Shown here one piece after another: positions 53,197-64,000 of a DNA stretch of 64,000 bases. The notes under the pieces were generated by a model. It was not told the DNA's origin and ran no database searches. It worked only from the letters and a program-made list of their open reading frames with translations. The position numbers and the translations under genes were made by a program. Each line of letters begins with the position of its first letter. The stretch's first letter is position 1. The stretch is from Betaproteobacteria bacterium RIFCSPLOWO2_12_FULL_68_20 (lineage in GTDB: Bacteria; Pseudomonadota; Gammaproteobacteria; Burkholderiales; SG8-39), in assembly GCA_001770655.1 (NCBI GenBank), contig MERQ01000020.1, positions 4,272 through 68,271 on the forward strand, read 5' to 3'.

Positions 53197-54348
53197 ATGC
53201 TGGAGAGCATCCTAAGGGGCCTCTCCGGGCTGGGCAGCGGCGGGATCGAGCTGTTCTCATCGCAGGGGCTGCCGAACCTGGTCATGCTGTTCGTCGCCGC
53301 CGGGCTGCTCTACCTCGGCGTGAAGAAGCAGGTGGAGCCGCTCCTTCTCGTTCCCATCGGCTTCGGCGGCCTGCTCGCGAACGTCCCGCTCGGCGACCTC
53401 ATGCAAGAGGGCGGCCTGCTGCGCATCCTCTACGACATGGGCATCTCGAACGAGCTGTTCCCGCTGCTCATCTTCATCGGCATCGGGGCCATGATCGATT
53501 TCGGCGTGCTGCTGGAGAACCCGAAGATCCTGCTGTTCGGCGCGGCGGGGCAGATCGGCATCTTCCTTACGCTGCTGCTCGCTTTGGGGTTGGGATTCAC
53601 GCAGCTCGAGGCGGTGAGCATCGCCATCATCGGGGCAATGGACGGCCCGACCGCGATCTACGTGACTTCGCAGTTCGCGCCGCACCTTCTCGGCGCGGTC
53701 TCGGTCGCCGCGTATTCGTACATGGCGCTCGTTCCGATCATCCAGCCGCCGATCATGAGGGCGCTCACCACGCAGAAGGAGCGCGTGGTGCGCATGGGCA
53801 CGCTGAAAAAGAGCGTCTCTCCTACCGCGAAGCTGCTTTTCCCCATCGTCGTGACGCTGGTGACCGGGCTCATCGCGCCGAAGGGCCTGCCCCTCATGGG
53901 AACTATCATGCTTGGCAATTTCATGCGCGAGTGCGGCGTGGTCGCCCGGCTGACCAAGGCCTCCGAGAACGAGATCGCGAACATAGTGACGCTGTTCCTC
54001 GGGCTTGCTATCGGGGGCACGATGGAGGGCAAGGCGTTTCTCACGCCGCAGACGCTCTTGATCTTCGGGCTCGGATTCATCGCCATCTGCCTCGACACCG
54101 TGGCAGGCGTGCTCTTCGGCAAGCTGGTGTGCTGGGCGAGCGGCGGCAAGGTCAACCCGCTCGTCGGCGCGGCCGGCATCTCGGCCTACCCGATGGCCGC
54201 GCGGGTGGTGCAGGTCCAGGGGCAGCGCTACGACAAGAGGAATTACCTCCTCATGCACGCCGCCGGAGCGAACACCGGCGGGCAGATCGGCTCGGTGATG
54301 GCCGCCGCCGTGATGCTGTCGGTACTCAATGGCATGGGCCTGATCTAG
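53197..54348 (+). CDS. Na+-translocating decarboxylase beta subunit (OadB/GcdB family)
   Basis: EPLLLVPIGFG, PLLIFIGIGAMIDFG, IIGAMDGPTAIY, AAYSYMALVPIIQPP and AGANTGGQIGS. Confidence 0.92.
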   Translation: MLESILRGLSGLGSGGIELFSSQGLPNLVMLFVAAGLLYLGVKKQVEPLLLVPIGFGGLLANVPLGDLMQEGGLLRILYDMGISNELFPLLIFIGIGAMIDFGVLLENPKILLFGAAGQIGIFLTLLLALGLGFTQLEAVSIAIIGAMDGPTAIYVTSQFAPHLLGAVSVAAYSYMALVPIIQPPIMRALTTQKERVVRMGTLKKSVSPTAKLLFPIVVTLVTGLIAPKGLPLMGTIMLGNFMRECGVVARLTKASENEIANIVTLFLGLAIGGTMEGKAFLTPQTLLIFGLGFIAICLDTVAGVLFGKLVCWASGGKVNPLVGAAGISAYPMAARVVQVQGQRYDKRNYLLMHAAGANTGGQIGSVMAAAVMLSVLNGMGLI

Positions 54349-54765: not shown

Positions 54766-55512
54766 ATGGATGCCAGCGACATTCGCAACGCAGTAAAGCG
54801 CAAGTATGCCGAGGCCGCGCGCAGTGCGACGTCGGGTGAGAGGTCCTGCTGCGGCACTTCGTGTGGCAGCGACAATGCAATCACTTCGCATCTGTATGCG
54901 CCCGAGCAAATGGCCGATGTCCCCGAAACCGCGCTGCGTGCCTCGCTCGGCTGCGGCAACCCCAGCGCCCTCGCGCAACTGCGCGCCGGGGAGATCGTGC
55001 TCGACCTGGGCTCCGGCGGCGGCATCGACGTGCTGCTCTCCGCAAAGCGGGTCGGCCCGACCGGGAAAGCCTACGGCCTGGACATGACCGAAGAAATGCT
55101 GCGCCTGGCACGGGACAACCAGCGCCAGGCGGGCGTGACCAACGCCGAGTTCCTGCAGGGCGAGATGGAAAACATCCCGTTGCCCGACAAGTCCGTAGAC
55201 GTGATCATCTCGAACTGCGTGATCAACCTGTCCGCGGACAAGGACCGCGTCCTGTCCGAGGCATTCCGCGTGCTTCGGCCCGGAGGCCGCTTCGCGGTGT
55301 CCGACGTCGTGTCGCGGGGCGAGATACCCGACGAGATCCGGCGCAACCTCGAACTCTGGACCGGATGCATTGCCGGCGCACTGGACGAGAGCGACTATCT
55401 GGGCAAGCTGCAGGCCGCCGGCTTCGTCGACGCGAGCATCGAGCCGACGCGCGTCTACGGCGACGGGCGATTTTTCGGCGCCTTTGTGCGCGCGAGGAAG
55501 CCGCTCACATGA
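54766..55512 (+). CDS. arsM: Arsenite S-adenosylmethionine methyltransferase
   Basis: [29 protein letters not shown] and WTGCIAGAL. Confidence 0.92.
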
Positions 55513-55538: not shown

Positions 55539-55700
55539 TCAGCCCCTGATGAGCCGCGGCAGCATCATCAGGTGCCGCGGGCAGATGGATTCCGGGTTCT
55601 GGTAGACGGCACCGGCAAACGCCTTGAGATAGCCGCGTAACGCGGCGAGATTCACGATCTCGTCGACGAAGCCGTAGCGCGCGCAGGGGGATGGGGTTGA
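55539..55700 (-). pseudogene. gcdA: 3' fragment of a glutaconyl-CoA decarboxylase alpha (carboxyltransferase) subunit
   Basis: CARYGFVDEIVNLAALRGYLKAFAGAVYQNPESICPRHLMMLPRLIRG* matches the GcdA C-terminus as recalled (..GLVDEIV..RGY..AF..AYQNPESICP.HQM.LPR). There is no upstream GcdA sequence. Confidence 0.7.
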
Positions 55701-59007: not shown

Positions 59008-59694
59008 CTAATGTTCTGGCGCGAAGACATCGTCGGGAAGTTCCGCGATCGCCGCGAGAACTGATTTGAAATGCCGCCGCACCGCCAACGCGGCTTTTGG
59101 TGCGGAGCCTTGCGACACCGCGTCTGCGATGAGCTGGAAATCATGCAGCCGTGCATCCCTTGATTGGTAGTCACGGAATTGGGTACGGATTAGATTGATC
59201 TGAACGCCGGGCACCAGTCTTGCCAATTCCCGATTACCGCCGATATGCACCAGCGCACGATAGAAGGCGTTCCTTGCCCGCGCGAATTCGAAGGAGTCGC
59301 CGGCGGCCTTGAAAGCCAGGAGCCGGTCAAAACTCTCTCGCAGCACCTTGCGGTTATCCGCCACCATGATTTTCCCGGCGGCCAATCTGGCGGCGAGCGC
59401 AATGAGCGCCTCGCCGACGGCGAGGATGTCCATGGCTTCGGCGCGGGTAAGCAAGCGGATCTGGGCGCCGCGATTGAAGCTGAGGGTGACCACGCCTTCG
59501 GCTGCAAGGCGGTTCAGCCCCTCACGGATCGATCCGCGGGCGACTTTGAACTCTCGCACGAGGTCGGCCTCGACCAGGCGCTGACCGGCTACGTATTTGC
59601 CGCGGTATAGTCCCTCGAGAATGGCGCGATAGACCCTGTAAGGCGCGCTTGCTGCCTCGAGATTGGCGAGTGCTGCATTGCTGGCGGGAATCAT
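59008..59694 (-). CDS. GntR family (FCD) transcriptional regulator
   Basis: YVAGQRLVEADLVREFKVARGSIREGLNRLAAEGVV HTH plus an FCD domain. The start is uncertain. Confidence 0.88.
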   Translation of the reverse strand: MIPASNAALANLEAASAPYRVYRAILEGLYRGKYVAGQRLVEADLVREFKVARGSIREGLNRLAAEGVVTLSFNRGAQIRLLTRAEAMDILAVGEALIALAARLAAGKIMVADNRKVLRESFDRLLAFKAAGDSFEFARARNAFYRALVHIGGNRELARLVPGVQINLIRTQFRDYQSRDARLHDFQLIADAVSQGSAPKAALAVRRHFKSVLAAIAELPDDVFAPEH

Positions 59695-59911
59695 CGGGCG
59701 CTCCCGGGCTGCCTGCGCCAGCCGGGGCGGTCGCGACCACCCACCAGCCCCGCCTGCACGCGCTGCTTCAGCAGACGGCGGGATCGAAAGCGTTCCCCGT
59801 AGGCATCGAACATGATTTCCTGCGCTTGCAGGCAGAGACTCGACGTCGTGGCGTCCATCAGCAAGTCGTCTTCGAACCCGAGCGGGCGCTCGCCCGTCGG
59901 GGAAAGCCCGA

Positions 59912-59941
59912 TTGACATTGTCAGACAAAATTGTAAGATAA
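59912..59941 (+). promoter_or_regulatory. Sigma70 promoter overlapped by tandem GntR/FadR-type operator palindromes
   Basis: TTGACA (59912-59917), 16-nt spacer, TAAGAT (59934-59939); palindrome TTGTC-A-GACAA (59918-59928) and a degenerate copy TTGTAAGATAA (59931-59941). Confidence 0.6.
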
Positions 59942-60193
59942 ACACGGACCGCAGCACAAGCGAGCGGCGCGTTACGTGCATTGGTGCGTGCGCGCCGATA
60001 TAGCTCCAAACCCAGGAGGCGATTTTTGTGATCGAGATCAAGTCGCCGATCGTCGCCACGATATTCGATGTGTGATCGCAATCGTCACGTCGCGGCAAGA
60101 CCTGGAGGGCAAACCGATGGCGCTACTGCGCCTTGCGTCCAGGCGATCAATCCTTAGGCCGATCGCATAACCATCGAAAAGGAGATAGTTCCA

Positions 60194-61075
60194 ATGTCGT
60201 TTTCCATGCAGACCCCGATCAAGGCCGAATTCGACGACCTCATCTACGAGGAGAAAGGCGATGTCGCGACGATCACGCTGAATCGGCCGAAGGTCGTCAA
60301 CGCCCTCTCGGTCAAGGTCTCCGACGAGCTGGTGGCGGCGGTGGAGAAGGTGCGCCAGTCGGAATCGATCAAGATCCTGGTGTTCCGCGGGGCAGGAGGC
60401 AACTTTTGCGCCGGCGACGATCTGAAAGAGTTTCTCAACTTGCCGGAGTGGGGCGACTCGAACCGCGCCTTCCGCCGCGCGCGCTTCTACCAGGACATGG
60501 CGTACTCCATCGAGGAGCTCGACAAGATCACAATCGCCGCGGTCGACGGATTCGCCGTCGGCGGCGGCCTGGAGCTCACGATGGCGTGCGACTTCGTGAT
60601 CGCGACCGAGCGCGCCAAGTGGGGCATGCCGGAGGCCGACTGGGGCATCACGCCCGGCTGGGGCGGCACCACGCGCATGGCGCGTCTCATTGGCCGCCGC
60701 AGGACCAAGGAGATCAACATCCTCGCTGCGCTGCATCCCGCCAAGACTGCGGTGGAATGGCATCTGTGGAACCGCGTCGTGCCCGACGACGCCCTGGACG
60801 CCGAGGTGGGGACGCTCATCGACCTGCTGCGCAGGAAAAATCAGCAGACCATGCGCCAACTCAAGTACATCATCAACAAGGGCGTGGAATGCGACCAGTA
60901 CACGGCGCAGGCGATGGAAGCGTTGTCGGCCGGCTGGACGTTCGAGCTTCTGCGCAGAGGCGTGGTGCGCGATCACGATGCGACCGCGGGACTCGAGGCG
61001 TTCCGCGACAAGAACGCGCTGCAAAAGAACCGGCGCAACGCGGCGCGCGACTTCTGGACCAAGCCGGCGATCTGA
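60194..61075 (+). CDS. Enoyl-CoA hydratase/isomerase family protein
   Basis: ITLNRP, FCAGDDL, AVGGGLEL and MPE..WGITPGWGG. Confidence 0.88.
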   Translation: MSFSMQTPIKAEFDDLIYEEKGDVATITLNRPKVVNALSVKVSDELVAAVEKVRQSESIKILVFRGAGGNFCAGDDLKEFLNLPEWGDSNRAFRRARFYQDMAYSIEELDKITIAAVDGFAVGGGLELTMACDFVIATERAKWGMPEADWGITPGWGGTTRMARLIGRRRTKEINILAALHPAKTAVEWHLWNRVVPDDALDAEVGTLIDLLRRKNQQTMRQLKYIINKGVECDQYTAQAMEALSAGWTFELLRRGVVRDHDATAGLEAFRDKNALQKNRRNAARDFWTKPAI

Positions 61076-61085
61076 TCGACGTATC

Positions 61086-62582
61086 GTGCGCCGCGAGCAC
61101 CTGAGCAGCCTGCGCAGCACCCTCGCGTGGCTCGGCGACGAGGTCAAATACCTTCGCGCCGAGGTCGATCCGGTGCTGGAGATGACTGCCATCAACAAGG
61201 CCTTCGACGACGGGCCGGTGTTCGTTGCCGAAAACATAACCGGCTATTCCCACGCCCGATACGTCGCCAGCCTGTTCGGCCGCAGGGACCGGGTTTGCCG
61301 CCTCCTCGGAGTGCAGTCCCAGAAAGAGGCGGCGCAGCGGATCCTGGAGGCTTTGCGACACCCGGTCGCGCCGGTGATCGTGTCGGATGCTCCCTGTCAG
61401 GAAATCGTGACCCCCGGGAAGGACGTCGATCCATTCGCGCTTTTCCCGATGGTCAAGCACACGCCGGTGGACGGCGGCCGCTTTTTCGGCTCCGGGGTGC
61501 ACCTGATCGGCGGGAAATACGCGGATGGAAAGAGTCAACTTGCGTTTTACCGCATGAGCTTTCGCGGCCGGGACTTCGCGTCGATCAACATGTTTCCCGG
61601 CGGGCATGGCGATCAAATCGCCCAGCGGCACTTCGGAGAAAAAATCCCCTGCACGGTCAACATCTGCCCGCCGCCGATGGTGGAGTTCGTGGCAGGCGGC
61701 TCGCTGAACCCGATCATTTTCCCGACCGCACCGGATGAGTTGGGACTCGCCGGCGCGTTGCAGGGGGCGCCGGTCGAGCTCGTCAGGGCGCGCACCGTGG
61801 ACGCCTACGCGATCGCCCGCTCGGAGTGGGTGATCGAGGGCTACATCGTGACCAACGAGCGCGTGTGGGAGACCGAGGAGGCCGAAGAGCTCGGGGTACA
61901 AGGCAAGGCCATGTTCCACCCCGAATACGCCGGCTACGTAGGCCGCGCGTATCGGTGCAGAAAATTCGAAGTCACCGCGGTGACCCATCGGGCGGACAAG
62001 CCCTATTACTACGTCCCCTATTTCGGGAATATCTGGGCGTACCTCCCCTTCGTCAGCGCCAATTACCTGGAGCTGTGCGAGCGCATCGCCCCCGGCTTCG
62101 CCCTGGACGCTACTTCCATGACCGGGCTCATCACCTGGGGCGGCGTCATCATCCAGGTGAAGAAGCGCAGGGCCACCGACGAGGGCCTGCAGCGCAACAT
62201 CCTCACTGCGGCGATGGGGATAAGCCGCGGCCTGCGGCTTGTGGTCGTCGTCGACGAGGATGTCGATATCTACCAGCCGGAGAGCGTTCTCTGGGCGATC
62301 GCCACACGGGTCGATCCGAAGTCCGACGTCGTGATCGGCGGAGGCGGCCGCGGCCAGGCGTTCGTGCCGTCCGCGGCTGTTCCCGAGGGCAAAGGGACTT
62401 TCGGCACCTGCCTCGGCGTCGACGCAACCGTCCCCTGGTCGATGAAGGACCAGTTCGCGCGCACGCGCTATCCGGTGGACGCGGTCGATTTCTCGAAATG
62501 GTTCACTGCGGAGGAGATCCGCTCGATGCGCGAGCACCAGAGCGAGTATCTCCGCCATCTCGGCATGACGGGTTTCAGCTGA
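61086..62582 (+). CDS. UbiD-family prFMN-dependent decarboxylase, phthaloyl-CoA decarboxylase-like
   Basis: UbiD motifs (YRM, ELGLAGALQGAPV, EGY, VVVDEDVDI, WAIATRVDP, GVDATVP) plus FHPEYAGYVG, WGGVIIQVKKR, EGLQRN and GRGQ.F.P. Confidence 0.9.
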   Translation: MRREHLSSLRSTLAWLGDEVKYLRAEVDPVLEMTAINKAFDDGPVFVAENITGYSHARYVASLFGRRDRVCRLLGVQSQKEAAQRILEALRHPVAPVIVSDAPCQEIVTPGKDVDPFALFPMVKHTPVDGGRFFGSGVHLIGGKYADGKSQLAFYRMSFRGRDFASINMFPGGHGDQIAQRHFGEKIPCTVNICPPPMVEFVAGGSLNPIIFPTAPDELGLAGALQGAPVELVRARTVDAYAIARSEWVIEGYIVTNERVWETEEAEELGVQGKAMFHPEYAGYVGRAYRCRKFEVTAVTHRADKPYYYVPYFGNIWAYLPFVSANYLELCERIAPGFALDATSMTGLITWGGVIIQVKKRRATDEGLQRNILTAAMGISRGLRLVVVVDEDVDIYQPESVLWAIATRVDPKSDVVIGGGGRGQAFVPSAAVPEGKGTFGTCLGVDATVPWSMKDQFARTRYPVDAVDFSKWFTAEEIRSMREHQSEYLRHLGMTGFS

Positions 62583-64000
62583 TGGGCGCCGCCCCCACGG
62601 TTTCGCAGACGCGGCTCGGGCCGGCCGAGAGCGTGGACGAGATGCTGCGGTCACGCTGCGCGGAAAACCCAGACAAGGTCATGTTCCGGAGCATCGAGCA
62701 GGGAAGTGCGATCACCTACCGGCAAATGCTGGACGTGACCGCTCAACTCGGCCGGCTGTTCGACGACCTGGGTCTCAGGGCCAACGACCGGGTGGCTGTC
62801 CTTGGAGAGAACTCGCTGGAGTTCCTGATCATCGCGCTGGCGGCGATGCGCTACGGGGCCACGTTCTGCCCGCTCAATCCCGAATACCTGGACGGGGAAA
62901 TCGAGAAGCTGCTCGCTCGCGCGCGCCCGAAAGCGACTTTTTGCCATCGCAGCCAGGCCGGCCGCGAGATCGGTGGCGCGCACGGGCAACTGTTCTATTA
63001 CGAGGACTGGCGCTCCGCCGCGCAAGCAGAAGCGCGTCCGGCCGCGGACCCCGACCTGTTTGCGGCGATCGCGAAGTACCCGGTCGACCGCCCGCCGGTG
63101 CCGGTATCGACCGGCGACAGCGCCGGGCTGATCTTTCACACCTCGGGAACCGAGGGCGAGCCGAAAGGCATCGTCCACTCGTCCCGCGGCTTCCTGACCA
63201 ACGCGCAGAACGCGGTGGCGATTTTCGAAATAGGCCCGCAAGACGTGCTGCTCGAGTACCGTCCCTACAGTTGGGCGGCGCCGTTCTGCTTCGGGTGCCT
63301 GACGCTGCTGTTCTCGGGGGCGACGGTCGTCTTCGCCAAGAAATTTTCGCGCAGCCGATTCTTCGATTGGATCAGGGATTACCGGGTCACCGTCGTCGGC
63401 GGCATCCCGGCGGTCTTCAACGCGCTGTTGAGCGCCGGGGAGCGGGTGAAGAGGTCCGACATTCCGTGGCTGAGATTCATCACCAGCAGCACTGCGCCGC
63501 TGCCGGCCTCGCAGCAAAAAAGATTCGTCGAGACCTACGACATCCCGATCGTCACACTGTACGGAGCGACCGAAGGCGGCTGGATGGCGTTTACGCCCCC
63601 CTCCAGCCCGAGGATCGGGAGCGTCGGTAAGCCGGCGGCATGTGCCGAGATGCGGATCGTGGACGAAGCGGGCAAGGCACTGCCGGCGGGAACGGTCGGG
63701 GAAATCGAGGTCGGAGGGGTGCAGCGCGCGATCGGATACCTGCTTCCCGACGGCAGCGTGCAGCCGTACTCGTCGGGGCGAATCCGCATCGGCGACCTCG
63801 GCGTCATCGACGCGGACGGATACCTCTACATCACCGGGCGCAAGAAGGACCTGATCATCCGGGGCGGCGAGAACGTCGCGCCTGCCGAGATTGACAACGT
63901 GCTGCTATCGCATCCCGACATCGCCGACGGTGCCGCTCTCGGCGTGCCCGATCCGATCTATGGCGAAGAAGTCGTGTGCTTCGTCGTTCCCAAGGAAGGG
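62582..64000 (+). CDS. AMP-dependent acyl-CoA ligase (partial, runs off the right edge)
   Basis: The ATG overlaps the UbiD stop and the frame is open to the window end. Motifs IFHTSGTEGEPKG, LYGATEG and GDLG..D.DGYLYITGRKKDLIIRGGEN. Absent from the ORF track, presumably because it has no stop in the window. Confidence 0.88.
   Translation, partial: MGAAPTVSQTRLGPAESVDEMLRSRCAENPDKVMFRSIEQGSAITYRQMLDVTAQLGRLFDDLGLRANDRVAVLGENSLEFLIIALAAMRYGATFCPLNPEYLDGEIEKLLARARPKATFCHRSQAGREIGGAHGQLFYYEDWRSAAQAEARPAADPDLFAAIAKYPVDRPPVPVSTGDSAGLIFHTSGTEGEPKGIVHSSRGFLTNAQNAVAIFEIGPQDVLLEYRPYSWAAPFCFGCLTLLFSGATVVFAKKFSRSRFFDWIRDYRVTVVGGIPAVFNALLSAGERVKRSDIPWLRFITSSTAPLPASQQKRFVETYDIPIVTLYGATEGGWMAFTPPSSPRIGSVGKPAACAEMRIVDEAGKALPAGTVGEIEVGGVQRAIGYLLPDGSVQPYSSGRIRIGDLGVIDADGYLYITGRKKDLIIRGGENVAPAEIDNVLLSHPDIADGAALGVPDPIYGEEVVCFVVPKEG

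Follow-up and report, generated by a model that had tools for sequence, protein, structure and literature searches.

What does a decarboxylase of the UbiD family do between a crotonase and a coenzyme A (CoA) ligase, and does it act on a free acid or on its CoA ester? The question is raised by a gene close to the end of a 64,000-nucleotide stretch of contig MERQ01000020.1 from Betaproteobacteria bacterium RIFCSPLOWO2_12_FULL_68_20. We refer to this whole stretch as the window (G000:C20:4272-68271, where G000 is the source genome: 3.48 Mb, 68% guanine plus cytosine (GC) and 96% complete). Only two UbiD enzymes are known to be specific for CoA esters, one for o-phthaloyl-CoA and one for isophthaloyl-CoA, and both act on man-made compounds. 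Judged by its sequence, the UbiD-family protein of the window is a member of a large uncharacterised sister clade of phthaloyl-CoA decarboxylase (PCD), and not an orthologue of the o-phthaloyl-CoA decarboxylase. The locus is a clean and compact representative of this unnamed clade.

Phylogenetic position of the UbiD-family protein

All three domains of the family (UbiD_N, the Rift-related UbiD domain and UbiD_C) score above the Pfam cut-offs in the window protein. Against all PDB sequences its best match by a wide margin is PCD (8pmk/8oz5; E 3.9e-100, 339 bits, residues 8-496), followed by AroY with 182 bits, HmfF with 110 bits and Fdc1 with about 67 bits. Identity to PCD is 36-37%, and 36% to the canonical PCD of Aromatoleum aromaticum. 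As reference genes we used those on plasmid 2 of Aromatoleum aromaticum EbN1 (WP_011255033/WP_011255025), whose products are 99% identical to each other; one of them scores 1175 bits against PDB 8PMK and so closely resembles the enzyme of known structure. The window protein stays below the cut-off of every NCBIfam model, the top model being VdcC with 186 bits against a cut-off of 650.

An earlier interpretation of the window from its letters alone (the sequence-only reading) had described the protein as PCD-like and clearly divergent, and had based this on four motifs and on the missing EGPFGE. Both parts of that description hold. FHPEYAGYVG, WGGVIIQVKKR, EGLQRN and GRGQAFVP are present in the translation and each aligns with a segment of PCD, while EGPFGE is absent. 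The protein belongs to the same fold family as the PCDs of Thauera chlorobenzoica and A. aromaticum EbN1 (PDB 8PMK, 8OZ5, 8P02), with which it shares HPE(W/Y)AGY(M/V)G, WGGxIIQVKKR, EGxQRN, GRGQxFxP and a C-terminal extension; it differs from them in residues around the metal and substrate region. R156 (in YRM) and E280 (in HPE) occupy Arg and Glu columns that are family-wide in AroY-like, canonical UbiD and PCD sequences, and invariant in the clade of the window protein. We take them to be equivalent to R173 and E282 of Fdc1.

The phylogeny that the sequence-only reading had proposed as a check places the protein beside PCD and apart from the free-acid decarboxylases of the AroY/VdcC type. 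The tree has 81 rows (IQ-TREE, LG+C20, quick search), drawn from the window protein, its relatives in a search of 5.8 billion proteins, representatives of 50%-identity clusters, 79 metagenome loci, related genomes, EbN1 PCD, plasmid-borne AroY/VdcC-like genes and the other UbiD genes of the source genome. The window UbiD falls in a clade of 25 rows, which we call clade W, with full support in the Shimodaira-Hasegawa-like approximate likelihood ratio test (SH-aLRT 100). Clade W is sister (SH-aLRT 95) to an 11-row clade (100) that holds PCD, and both lie inside a PCD-like superclade of 66 rows (100) that excludes the AroY/VdcC-like enzymes and canonical UbiD.

Sequence features follow the same divisions. 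In the group consensus sequences, GRGQxFxP, a long insert before the HPE of the catalytic Glu and a C-terminal extension of about 35 residues are found throughout the superclade, and AroY and UbiD lack all three. The window protein combines these shared derived features with monophyly with PCD. The consensus of clade W differs from that of PCD in having YRMSFRG for NRMNFRW and ASINMxPGGHGD for TFQISPGSHMW, and in the stretch 309-325. The PCD-specific NRMNF, FQISPGSH and TDWGG are replaced throughout clade W, and PCD and its closest sisters conserve the segments concerned. The free-acid enzymes AroY/VdcC and HmfF belong to the same superfamily and use the same cofactor system, with dicarboxylate or aromatic acid substrates, but they form separate clades and lack the C-terminal extension and GRGQxFxP. 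Membership in the AroY/VdcC group is likewise contradicted by the VdcC score below its cut-off, and the plasmid-borne AroY/VdcC-like examples adjoin UbiX, unlike the window gene.

Clade W has many members: the window UbiD is 45-76% identical to more than 120 clusters formed at 90% identity, all of which have either no name or a generic one; the named hits among them belong to metagenome-assembled genomes (MAGs) of Dehalococcoidia/Chloroflexota and of Alphaproteobacteria, including Hyphomicrobiaceae. A search of the ESM Atlas with the window protein returned generic UbiD clusters only, and a literature search found no paper describing the clade. PCD is the sole member of the superclade that can be identified as biochemically characterised; a search with PCD that aimed at Desulfosarcina sequences with a name yielded nothing but unnamed or MAG entries of 75-90% identity. 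The isophthaloyl-CoA decarboxylase has been grouped with phenolic acid decarboxylase subunit C sequences (PMC8269228), and from this published description it would stand outside the PCD-like superclade.

Structure of the operon

The UbiD gene is the second gene of a five-gene operon (crotonase, UbiD, ligase, TctC binding protein and 3-hydroxyacyl-CoA dehydrogenase), which a divergent regulator gene adjoins. In the list, AMP stands for adenosine monophosphate and prFMN for prenylated flavin mononucleotide.

59008..60081, minus strand: GntR-family regulator with an FCD ligand-binding domain (Pfam GntR 1.1e-10, FCD 1.5e-11)
60194..61075, plus strand: short-chain enoyl-CoA hydratase (crotonase), first gene of the operon (Pfam ECH_1 1.3e-48)
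61086..62582, plus strand: UbiD-family decarboxylase, prFMN-dependent by family, 498 residues, GTG start (Pfam UbiD_N, UbiD, UbiD_C)
62582..64000, plus strand, cut by the window end: AMP-forming acyl-CoA ligase (AMP-binding 2e-74, AMP-binding_C)
G000:C20:68475-69437, past the window: TctC-family periplasmic binding protein (Pfam TctC 2.3e-64)
G000:C20:69499-70371, past the window: 3-hydroxyacyl-CoA dehydrogenase, 290 residues (3HCDH_N, 3HCDH)

The tight coupling of the first three genes, which the sequence-only reading had described, is found as claimed: 10 nucleotides separate the crotonase stop codon (TGA, 61073-61075) from the UbiD start codon (GTG, 61086), and the UbiD stop codon (TGA, 62580-62582) shares a TGATG overlap with the ligase start codon (ATG, 62582-62584). 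That reading had also pointed to the genes downstream, which prove to be the remainder of the ligase, the TctC protein and the dehydrogenase. On the contig the complete ligase has 534 residues and ends 186 nucleotides beyond the window. The TctC gene follows after 17 nucleotides; it is preceded by the ribosome-binding site GGAGG, and its product has a signal peptide. The dehydrogenase gene comes after another 61 nucleotides. No terminator-like sites were found in the intergenic gaps of the operon. The GntR and FCD domains occupy residues 149-339 of a 357-residue open reading frame (ORF; Pfam), so the true start of the regulator is probably internal, near 59.66 kb; from its position, the protein presumably regulates the operon.

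UbiX was found neither in the window, as the sequence-only reading had stated, nor elsewhere on contig C20. The genome has a single match, on contig C16 (237 bits against a cut-off of 108.9), and a maker of prFMN is thus available.

The best solved relatives of the ligase are oxalyl-CoA synthetases (246 and 245 bits) and malonyl-CoA synthetase (205), while 4-chlorobenzoate ligase scores 143 bits. The TctC receptor gives no substrate hint, since Bug27, BugE, BugD, an adipate binder and terephthalate binders all match it about equally well (168-201 bits). The crotonase passes the cut-off of no NCBIfam model; its best solved relative is the 3-hydroxypropionyl-CoA dehydratase 5zai (155 bits), followed by short-chain enoyl-CoA hydratases. 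Read against the rat hydratase, it has what we take to be both catalytic Glu positions (in GGGLELT and GMPEADWG).

Gene context across clade W and its relatives

The gene context was compared across 52 clade-W loci from metagenomes and genomes, in which conserved ORFs were recognised by cross-locus similarity and recurrent families were named with Pfam and NCBIfam; the set does not extend to the contigs that encode the nearest relatives of the window UbiD (P0003-P0005, 75-76% identical). The commonest neighbour of UbiD is an AMP ligase homologous to that of the window (34-44% identity), found in about 30 loci. Nine loci have a type III CoA-transferase, which lies directly upstream of UbiD in G029, L021, L022 and L026. 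The pairing of UbiD with a CoA-activating enzyme that the sequence-only reading had seen in the window is a conserved feature of clade W, in keeping with its proposal that a dicarboxylate is first activated and then decarboxylated: 32 of the 52 loci have a CoA ligase or type III CoA-transferase no more than 5 kb from UbiD, as do 15 of the 21 with at least 2.5 kb on both flanks. In some loci a CoA-transferase and a ligase both directly flank UbiD. Among the remaining lineages of the superclade, ligases or paired CoA-transferases are present in 21 of 29 loci. Since this linkage is found in clade W, the PCD clade and the other lineages, we regard it as a trait of the whole superclade. Uptake genes likewise recur in clade-W loci, namely TctC proteins (35-40% identical to that of the window), tripartite ATP-independent periplasmic (TRAP) systems and ATP-binding cassette binding proteins.

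PCD and the window UbiD are thus alike in being linked to genes for CoA activation and carboxylate uptake, but the parts are different. Loci of the PCD clade have a characteristic order of UbiX, PCD and two type III CoA-transferase genes, with a TRAP transporter, whereas the window carries an AMP ligase and a TctC receptor and has no UbiX next to its UbiD gene. The paired CoA-transferases are present in EbN1, in the related genome G029 and in the metagenome loci of the PCD clade. UbiX is adjacent in PCD-clade loci, yet in only 3 of the 52 clade-W loci. The window shows none of the marks of an o-phthalate PCD locus, which are high identity to characterised PCDs with membership in their clade, adjacent UbiX and paired type III CoA-transferases, although the last are not universal, as sulfate reducers are reported to use a ligase for o-phthalate (PMC13040137).

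G029 is the only carrier of a clade-W orthologue among 60 related genomes (62% identity). It holds loci of both kinds, in L102 (G029:C38) and L103 (G029:C43). The PCD-type locus consists of UbiX, PCD and two to three type III CoA-transferases, and the clade-W locus of CoA-transferase, UbiD, ligase and methyltransferase, with an adjoining pair of 3-hydroxy-3-methylglutaryl-CoA (HMG-CoA) lyase and hydratase. The occurrence of both types in one genome points to different functions.

The crotonase and the dehydrogenase do not share this conservation. Either is found within 5 kb of UbiD in only 5 of the 52 clade-W loci, and the crotonases linked to clade W are only 27-34% identical to that of the window. 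The crotonase and dehydrogenase of the operon can also be read as part of a neighbouring module from glutaryl-CoA to acetoacetyl-CoA. The sequence-only reading had taken the crotonase partner as a possible sign of a different substrate; as an unconserved partner that can be assigned to the glutaryl-CoA module, it is weak evidence for this, and the argument is not supported in that form.

Two other clues from the neighbourhood were likewise set aside. The pair formed by an HMG-CoA lyase (476 bits, cut-off 246) and a methylglutaconyl- or carboxygeranoyl-type hydratase beside the clade-W locus (G029, L021, L022) probably belongs to a neighbouring Liu/Atu module. A connection with trans-aconitate methyltransferase dissolved, as the enzyme near the window operon is ArsM and the clade-W neighbours elsewhere resemble protein-lysine methyltransferases.

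Many metagenome loci have a pair of UbiD genes, either adjacent or a few kilobases from each other (in tandem in L025, L027 and L037; further in L033, L038, L046, L062, L065, L066, L077, L086, L090 and L094) and may represent two-decarboxylase systems. Some of them combine two clade-W paralogues that are 56-59% identical to the window protein. Others combine a clade-W or superclade gene with a UbiD of 24-29% identity, which in L038 is like the HmfF-like gene on C69 of the source genome.

A subclade of clade W (L050-L057, L062-L064 and L096; about 50% identity to the window protein) has a similar layout across its contigs: a cupin on the minus strand, UbiD, an acetolactate-synthase-like thiamine diphosphate enzyme (750 bits against a cut-off of 509), a short-chain dehydrogenase/reductase (SDR) on the minus strand and a ligase, with an ornithine-cyclodeaminase/mu-crystallin gene upstream. 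This context of its own hints at a different substrate.

A putative CoA-ester decarboxylation module and its alternatives

Sequence and gene context together make it fairly probable that the locus encodes a CoA-ester decarboxylation module, in which uptake and thioesterification by the ligase would be followed by prFMN-dependent removal of a second carboxyl group, on the model of the phthaloyl-CoA system. The TctC-type periplasmic receptor would capture a di- or tricarboxylic acid, the ligase would link one of its carboxyl groups to CoA, and the UbiD protein, loaded with prFMN from the single UbiX of the genome, would remove the remaining carboxyl group from an sp2 carbon. We infer the specificity for CoA esters, the order of ligase and then decarboxylase, and the substrate from these data. 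Because clade W is separate and has a ligase and/or a type III CoA-transferase as partner, the substrate is most likely a different acid than o-phthalate. A preprint states that the PCD of Azoarcus sp. PA01 accepts neither isophthalyl- nor terephthalyl-CoA.

The same logic is known from the isophthalate system of Syntrophorhabdus aromaticivorans, in which an ATP-dependent ligase (IPCL) precedes a UbiD-like decarboxylase that acts on the CoA ester (PMC9516798, PMC13040137). IPCL is a 49.6-kDa homologue of PaaK-type phenylacetate-CoA ligases (PMC9516798), whereas the window ligase has its nearest relatives among the oxalyl- and malonyl-CoA synthetases.

Several observations weigh against such a module. 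About 30% of the well-flanked clade-W loci have no activating gene within 5 kb, and a link to a ligase would be equally expected if the decarboxylase took the free acid and the ligase its product. The tree is supported by SH-aLRT values only, without bootstraps, and was built without the ligase-dependent PCD of Desulfosarcina and the isophthaloyl-CoA decarboxylase of Syntrophorhabdus.

The alternative that survives best reverses the two steps, with UbiD acting on a free dicarboxylic acid, as HmfF does on 2,5-furandicarboxylate and AroY on protocatechuate, and the ligase activating the monocarboxylic product. Gene adjacency gives no reaction order, the top NCBIfam model for the UbiD protein (VdcC) describes a free-acid enzyme, and the source genome has two further HmfF-like UbiD genes. 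We nevertheless consider this order improbable, as the VdcC score is far below its cut-off and the protein groups with PCD, not with the AroY/VdcC-like sequences, and shares the PCD-type indels. In addition, the nearest solved relatives of the ligase activate dicarboxylates (oxalate, malonate) and not aromatic monocarboxylates, and the clade-W loci in which CoA-transferase and ligase both flank UbiD argue in the same direction.

It is distinctly improbable that the operon serves no common pathway, so that UbiD, ligase and TctC would only by chance adjoin the beta-oxidation genes of a catabolic island and the five genes would act on unrelated substrates. The partners that are unconserved in the clade and the mosaic nature of the surrounding 15 kb, with its GC dip, ArsM gene, duplicated gene end of 144 bp and glutaconyl-CoA decarboxylase (Gcd) parts, would agree with such a view. 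However, overlapping or nearly overlapping stop and start codons join crotonase, UbiD and ligase, and the pairing of UbiD with a ligase recurs in dozens of unrelated contigs. We also considered that a cassette of UbiD, ligase and TctC had been inserted into a native operon of crotonase and dehydrogenase. This idea is not supported: a search of the 60 related genomes for the crotonase gave no orthologue at E<=1e-50, and it is therefore no more native than UbiD.

Another o-phthalate system, with a ligase-dependent PCD isoenzyme as reported for sulfate reducers, is very improbable: PCD is the nearest characterised enzyme, Desulfosarcina cetonica activates o-phthalate by an ATP-dependent ligase (PMC13040137) and the genome has BcrB and BoxB to consume benzoyl-CoA, but the 36-37% identity to the PCDs compared, to which that of D. 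cetonica does not belong, contrasts with 74-85% for sediment PCDs against the references (PMC8269228), the PCD-specific motifs are lost throughout clade W, UbiX is not adjacent although it is present in all known o-phthalate clusters (PMC13040137), and G029 holds both types.

Candidate substrates

If the locus is a CoA-ester decarboxylation module, an aromatic or heteroaromatic dicarboxylate is a serious candidate, without being the probable substrate; its aroyl-CoA product would be consumed by the benzoyl-CoA routes of the genome. This is proposed because PCD is the nearest characterised enzyme and because the genome has benzoyl-CoA pathways. It encodes BoxB (763 bits), subunit B of class I benzoyl-CoA reductase (BcrB, 767 bits) and a haem-copper oxidase, and could therefore use up benzoyl-CoA in the presence as well as in the absence of oxygen. 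An aerobic hybrid phthalate pathway via phthaloyl-CoA was reportedly described in denitrifying bacteria by Ebenau-Jehle and co-workers in 2020, with a true PCD and a succinyl-CoA:phthalate CoA-transferase. CoA-dependent decarboxylation there reportedly feeds benzoyl-CoA routes in a facultative anaerobe, and BoxB, BcrB and the haem-copper oxidase of the source genome form a comparable setting.

An aliphatic or alicyclic alpha,beta-unsaturated di- or tricarboxylate is an equally likely candidate, again short of being probable, and would yield a short-chain enoyl-CoA for the hydratase and dehydrogenase of the operon. Here the reasons are that UbiD is translationally coupled to the hydratase, with its 3-hydroxypropionyl-CoA dehydratase and short-chain relatives, and that the operon includes the 3-hydroxyacyl-CoA dehydrogenase, that the ligase scores higher with oxalyl- and malonyl-CoA synthetases (246 and 205 bits) than with aromatic acid ligases (143), and that the same island holds a complete glutaconyl-CoA decarboxylase route. 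Some other kind of substrate is the less likely remainder.

As a doubtful extension of the aliphatic case, the enzymes of clade W may remove CO2 from the CoA esters of alpha,beta-unsaturated aliphatic di- or tricarboxylates that occur in nature. Like phthaloyl-CoA, such esters carry a carboxylate on an sp2 carbon beside the carbon that bears the thioester. Candidate reactions would be mesaconyl- or citraconyl-CoA to crotonyl-CoA and aconityl-CoA to glutaconyl-CoA, and the products would pass to the Na+-pumping glutaconyl-CoA decarboxylase, the short-chain hydratase and the 3-hydroxyacyl-CoA dehydrogenase. If true, this would be a new prFMN-dependent entry into central metabolism, and would exemplify the type of natural activity that was recruited to give the xenobiotic phthaloyl-CoA decarboxylase.

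The identity of the substrate could reveal a missing route for a phthalate isomer or a heteroaromatic acid, useful in the bioremediation of plastic monomers; no anaerobic terephthalate pathway has been elucidated genetically, according to a 2026 review (PMC13040137). Alternatively, it could show from what natural chemistry PCD arose, and in either case it would widen the toolbox of prFMN biocatalysis to new thioester substrates.

Host genome and surrounding island

The source genome has four UbiD-family genes, which are one canonical UbiD, two HmfF-like genes and the window gene, and no PCD orthologue was found in it. An HmfF-like UbiD gene lies about 9 kb from BcrB (C37:18250-19485, C37:28164-28739), and BoxB is located at C25:37262-38659.

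No orthologue of the window UbiD was found at E<=1e-130 in 400 sampled genomes of the phylum. GC content falls to 0.62-0.65 between about 53.7 kb and about 69 kb (extrapolated window coordinates), compared with 0.68-0.70 in the flanks. This dip covers the Gcd parts, ArsM, the operon and a gene for an Acd-like protein, and runs about 5 kb past the window. Patchy distribution and GC dip together suggest, as soft evidence, that the operon was acquired horizontally, and the low-GC stretch may be an acquired catabolic island. Two of its genes upstream of the operon are:

53197..54348, plus strand: OAD_beta, beta subunit of a Na+-translocating decarboxylase (PF03977 1e-145), in the same low-GC stretch as the operon
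54766-55512: ArsM arsenite methyltransferase (NCBIfam 341 bits against a cut-off of 263), alone of its kind among genes of acyl-CoA metabolism

The other upstream genes encode an APH-family kinase, an SDR, a further acyl-CoA dehydrogenase and a 3-oxoadipyl-CoA thiolase (695 bits against a cut-off of 622). Past the operon, two genes converge on it, first a carboxyltransferase and then an acyl-CoA dehydrogenase that is close to the non-decarboxylating glutaryl-CoA dehydrogenase Acd (445.5 bits, below the cut-off of 470). The carboxyltransferase and the Acd-like protein are likely partners of OAD_beta.

A contig scan with the window sequence matched only an identical contig. This contig of 9,589 bp, from the MAG "Anaerolineae bacterium SMAG_U8338", is 100% identical to the window from 59744 to 64000 and onward (G000:C20:64015-73603), and it ends near the regulator gene and near the end of the Acd-like gene. 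It is probably a binning error; alternatively, it may be a strain-variable island that assembles separately.

A 144-bp repeat (95.8% identity) is found at 55543-55686 of the window and at G000:C20:70372-70515. The second copy forms the 3' terminus of the GcdA-like carboxyltransferase gene, and the first lies between the ArsM and acyl-CoA dehydrogenase genes, where it looks like a rearrangement scar in the island.

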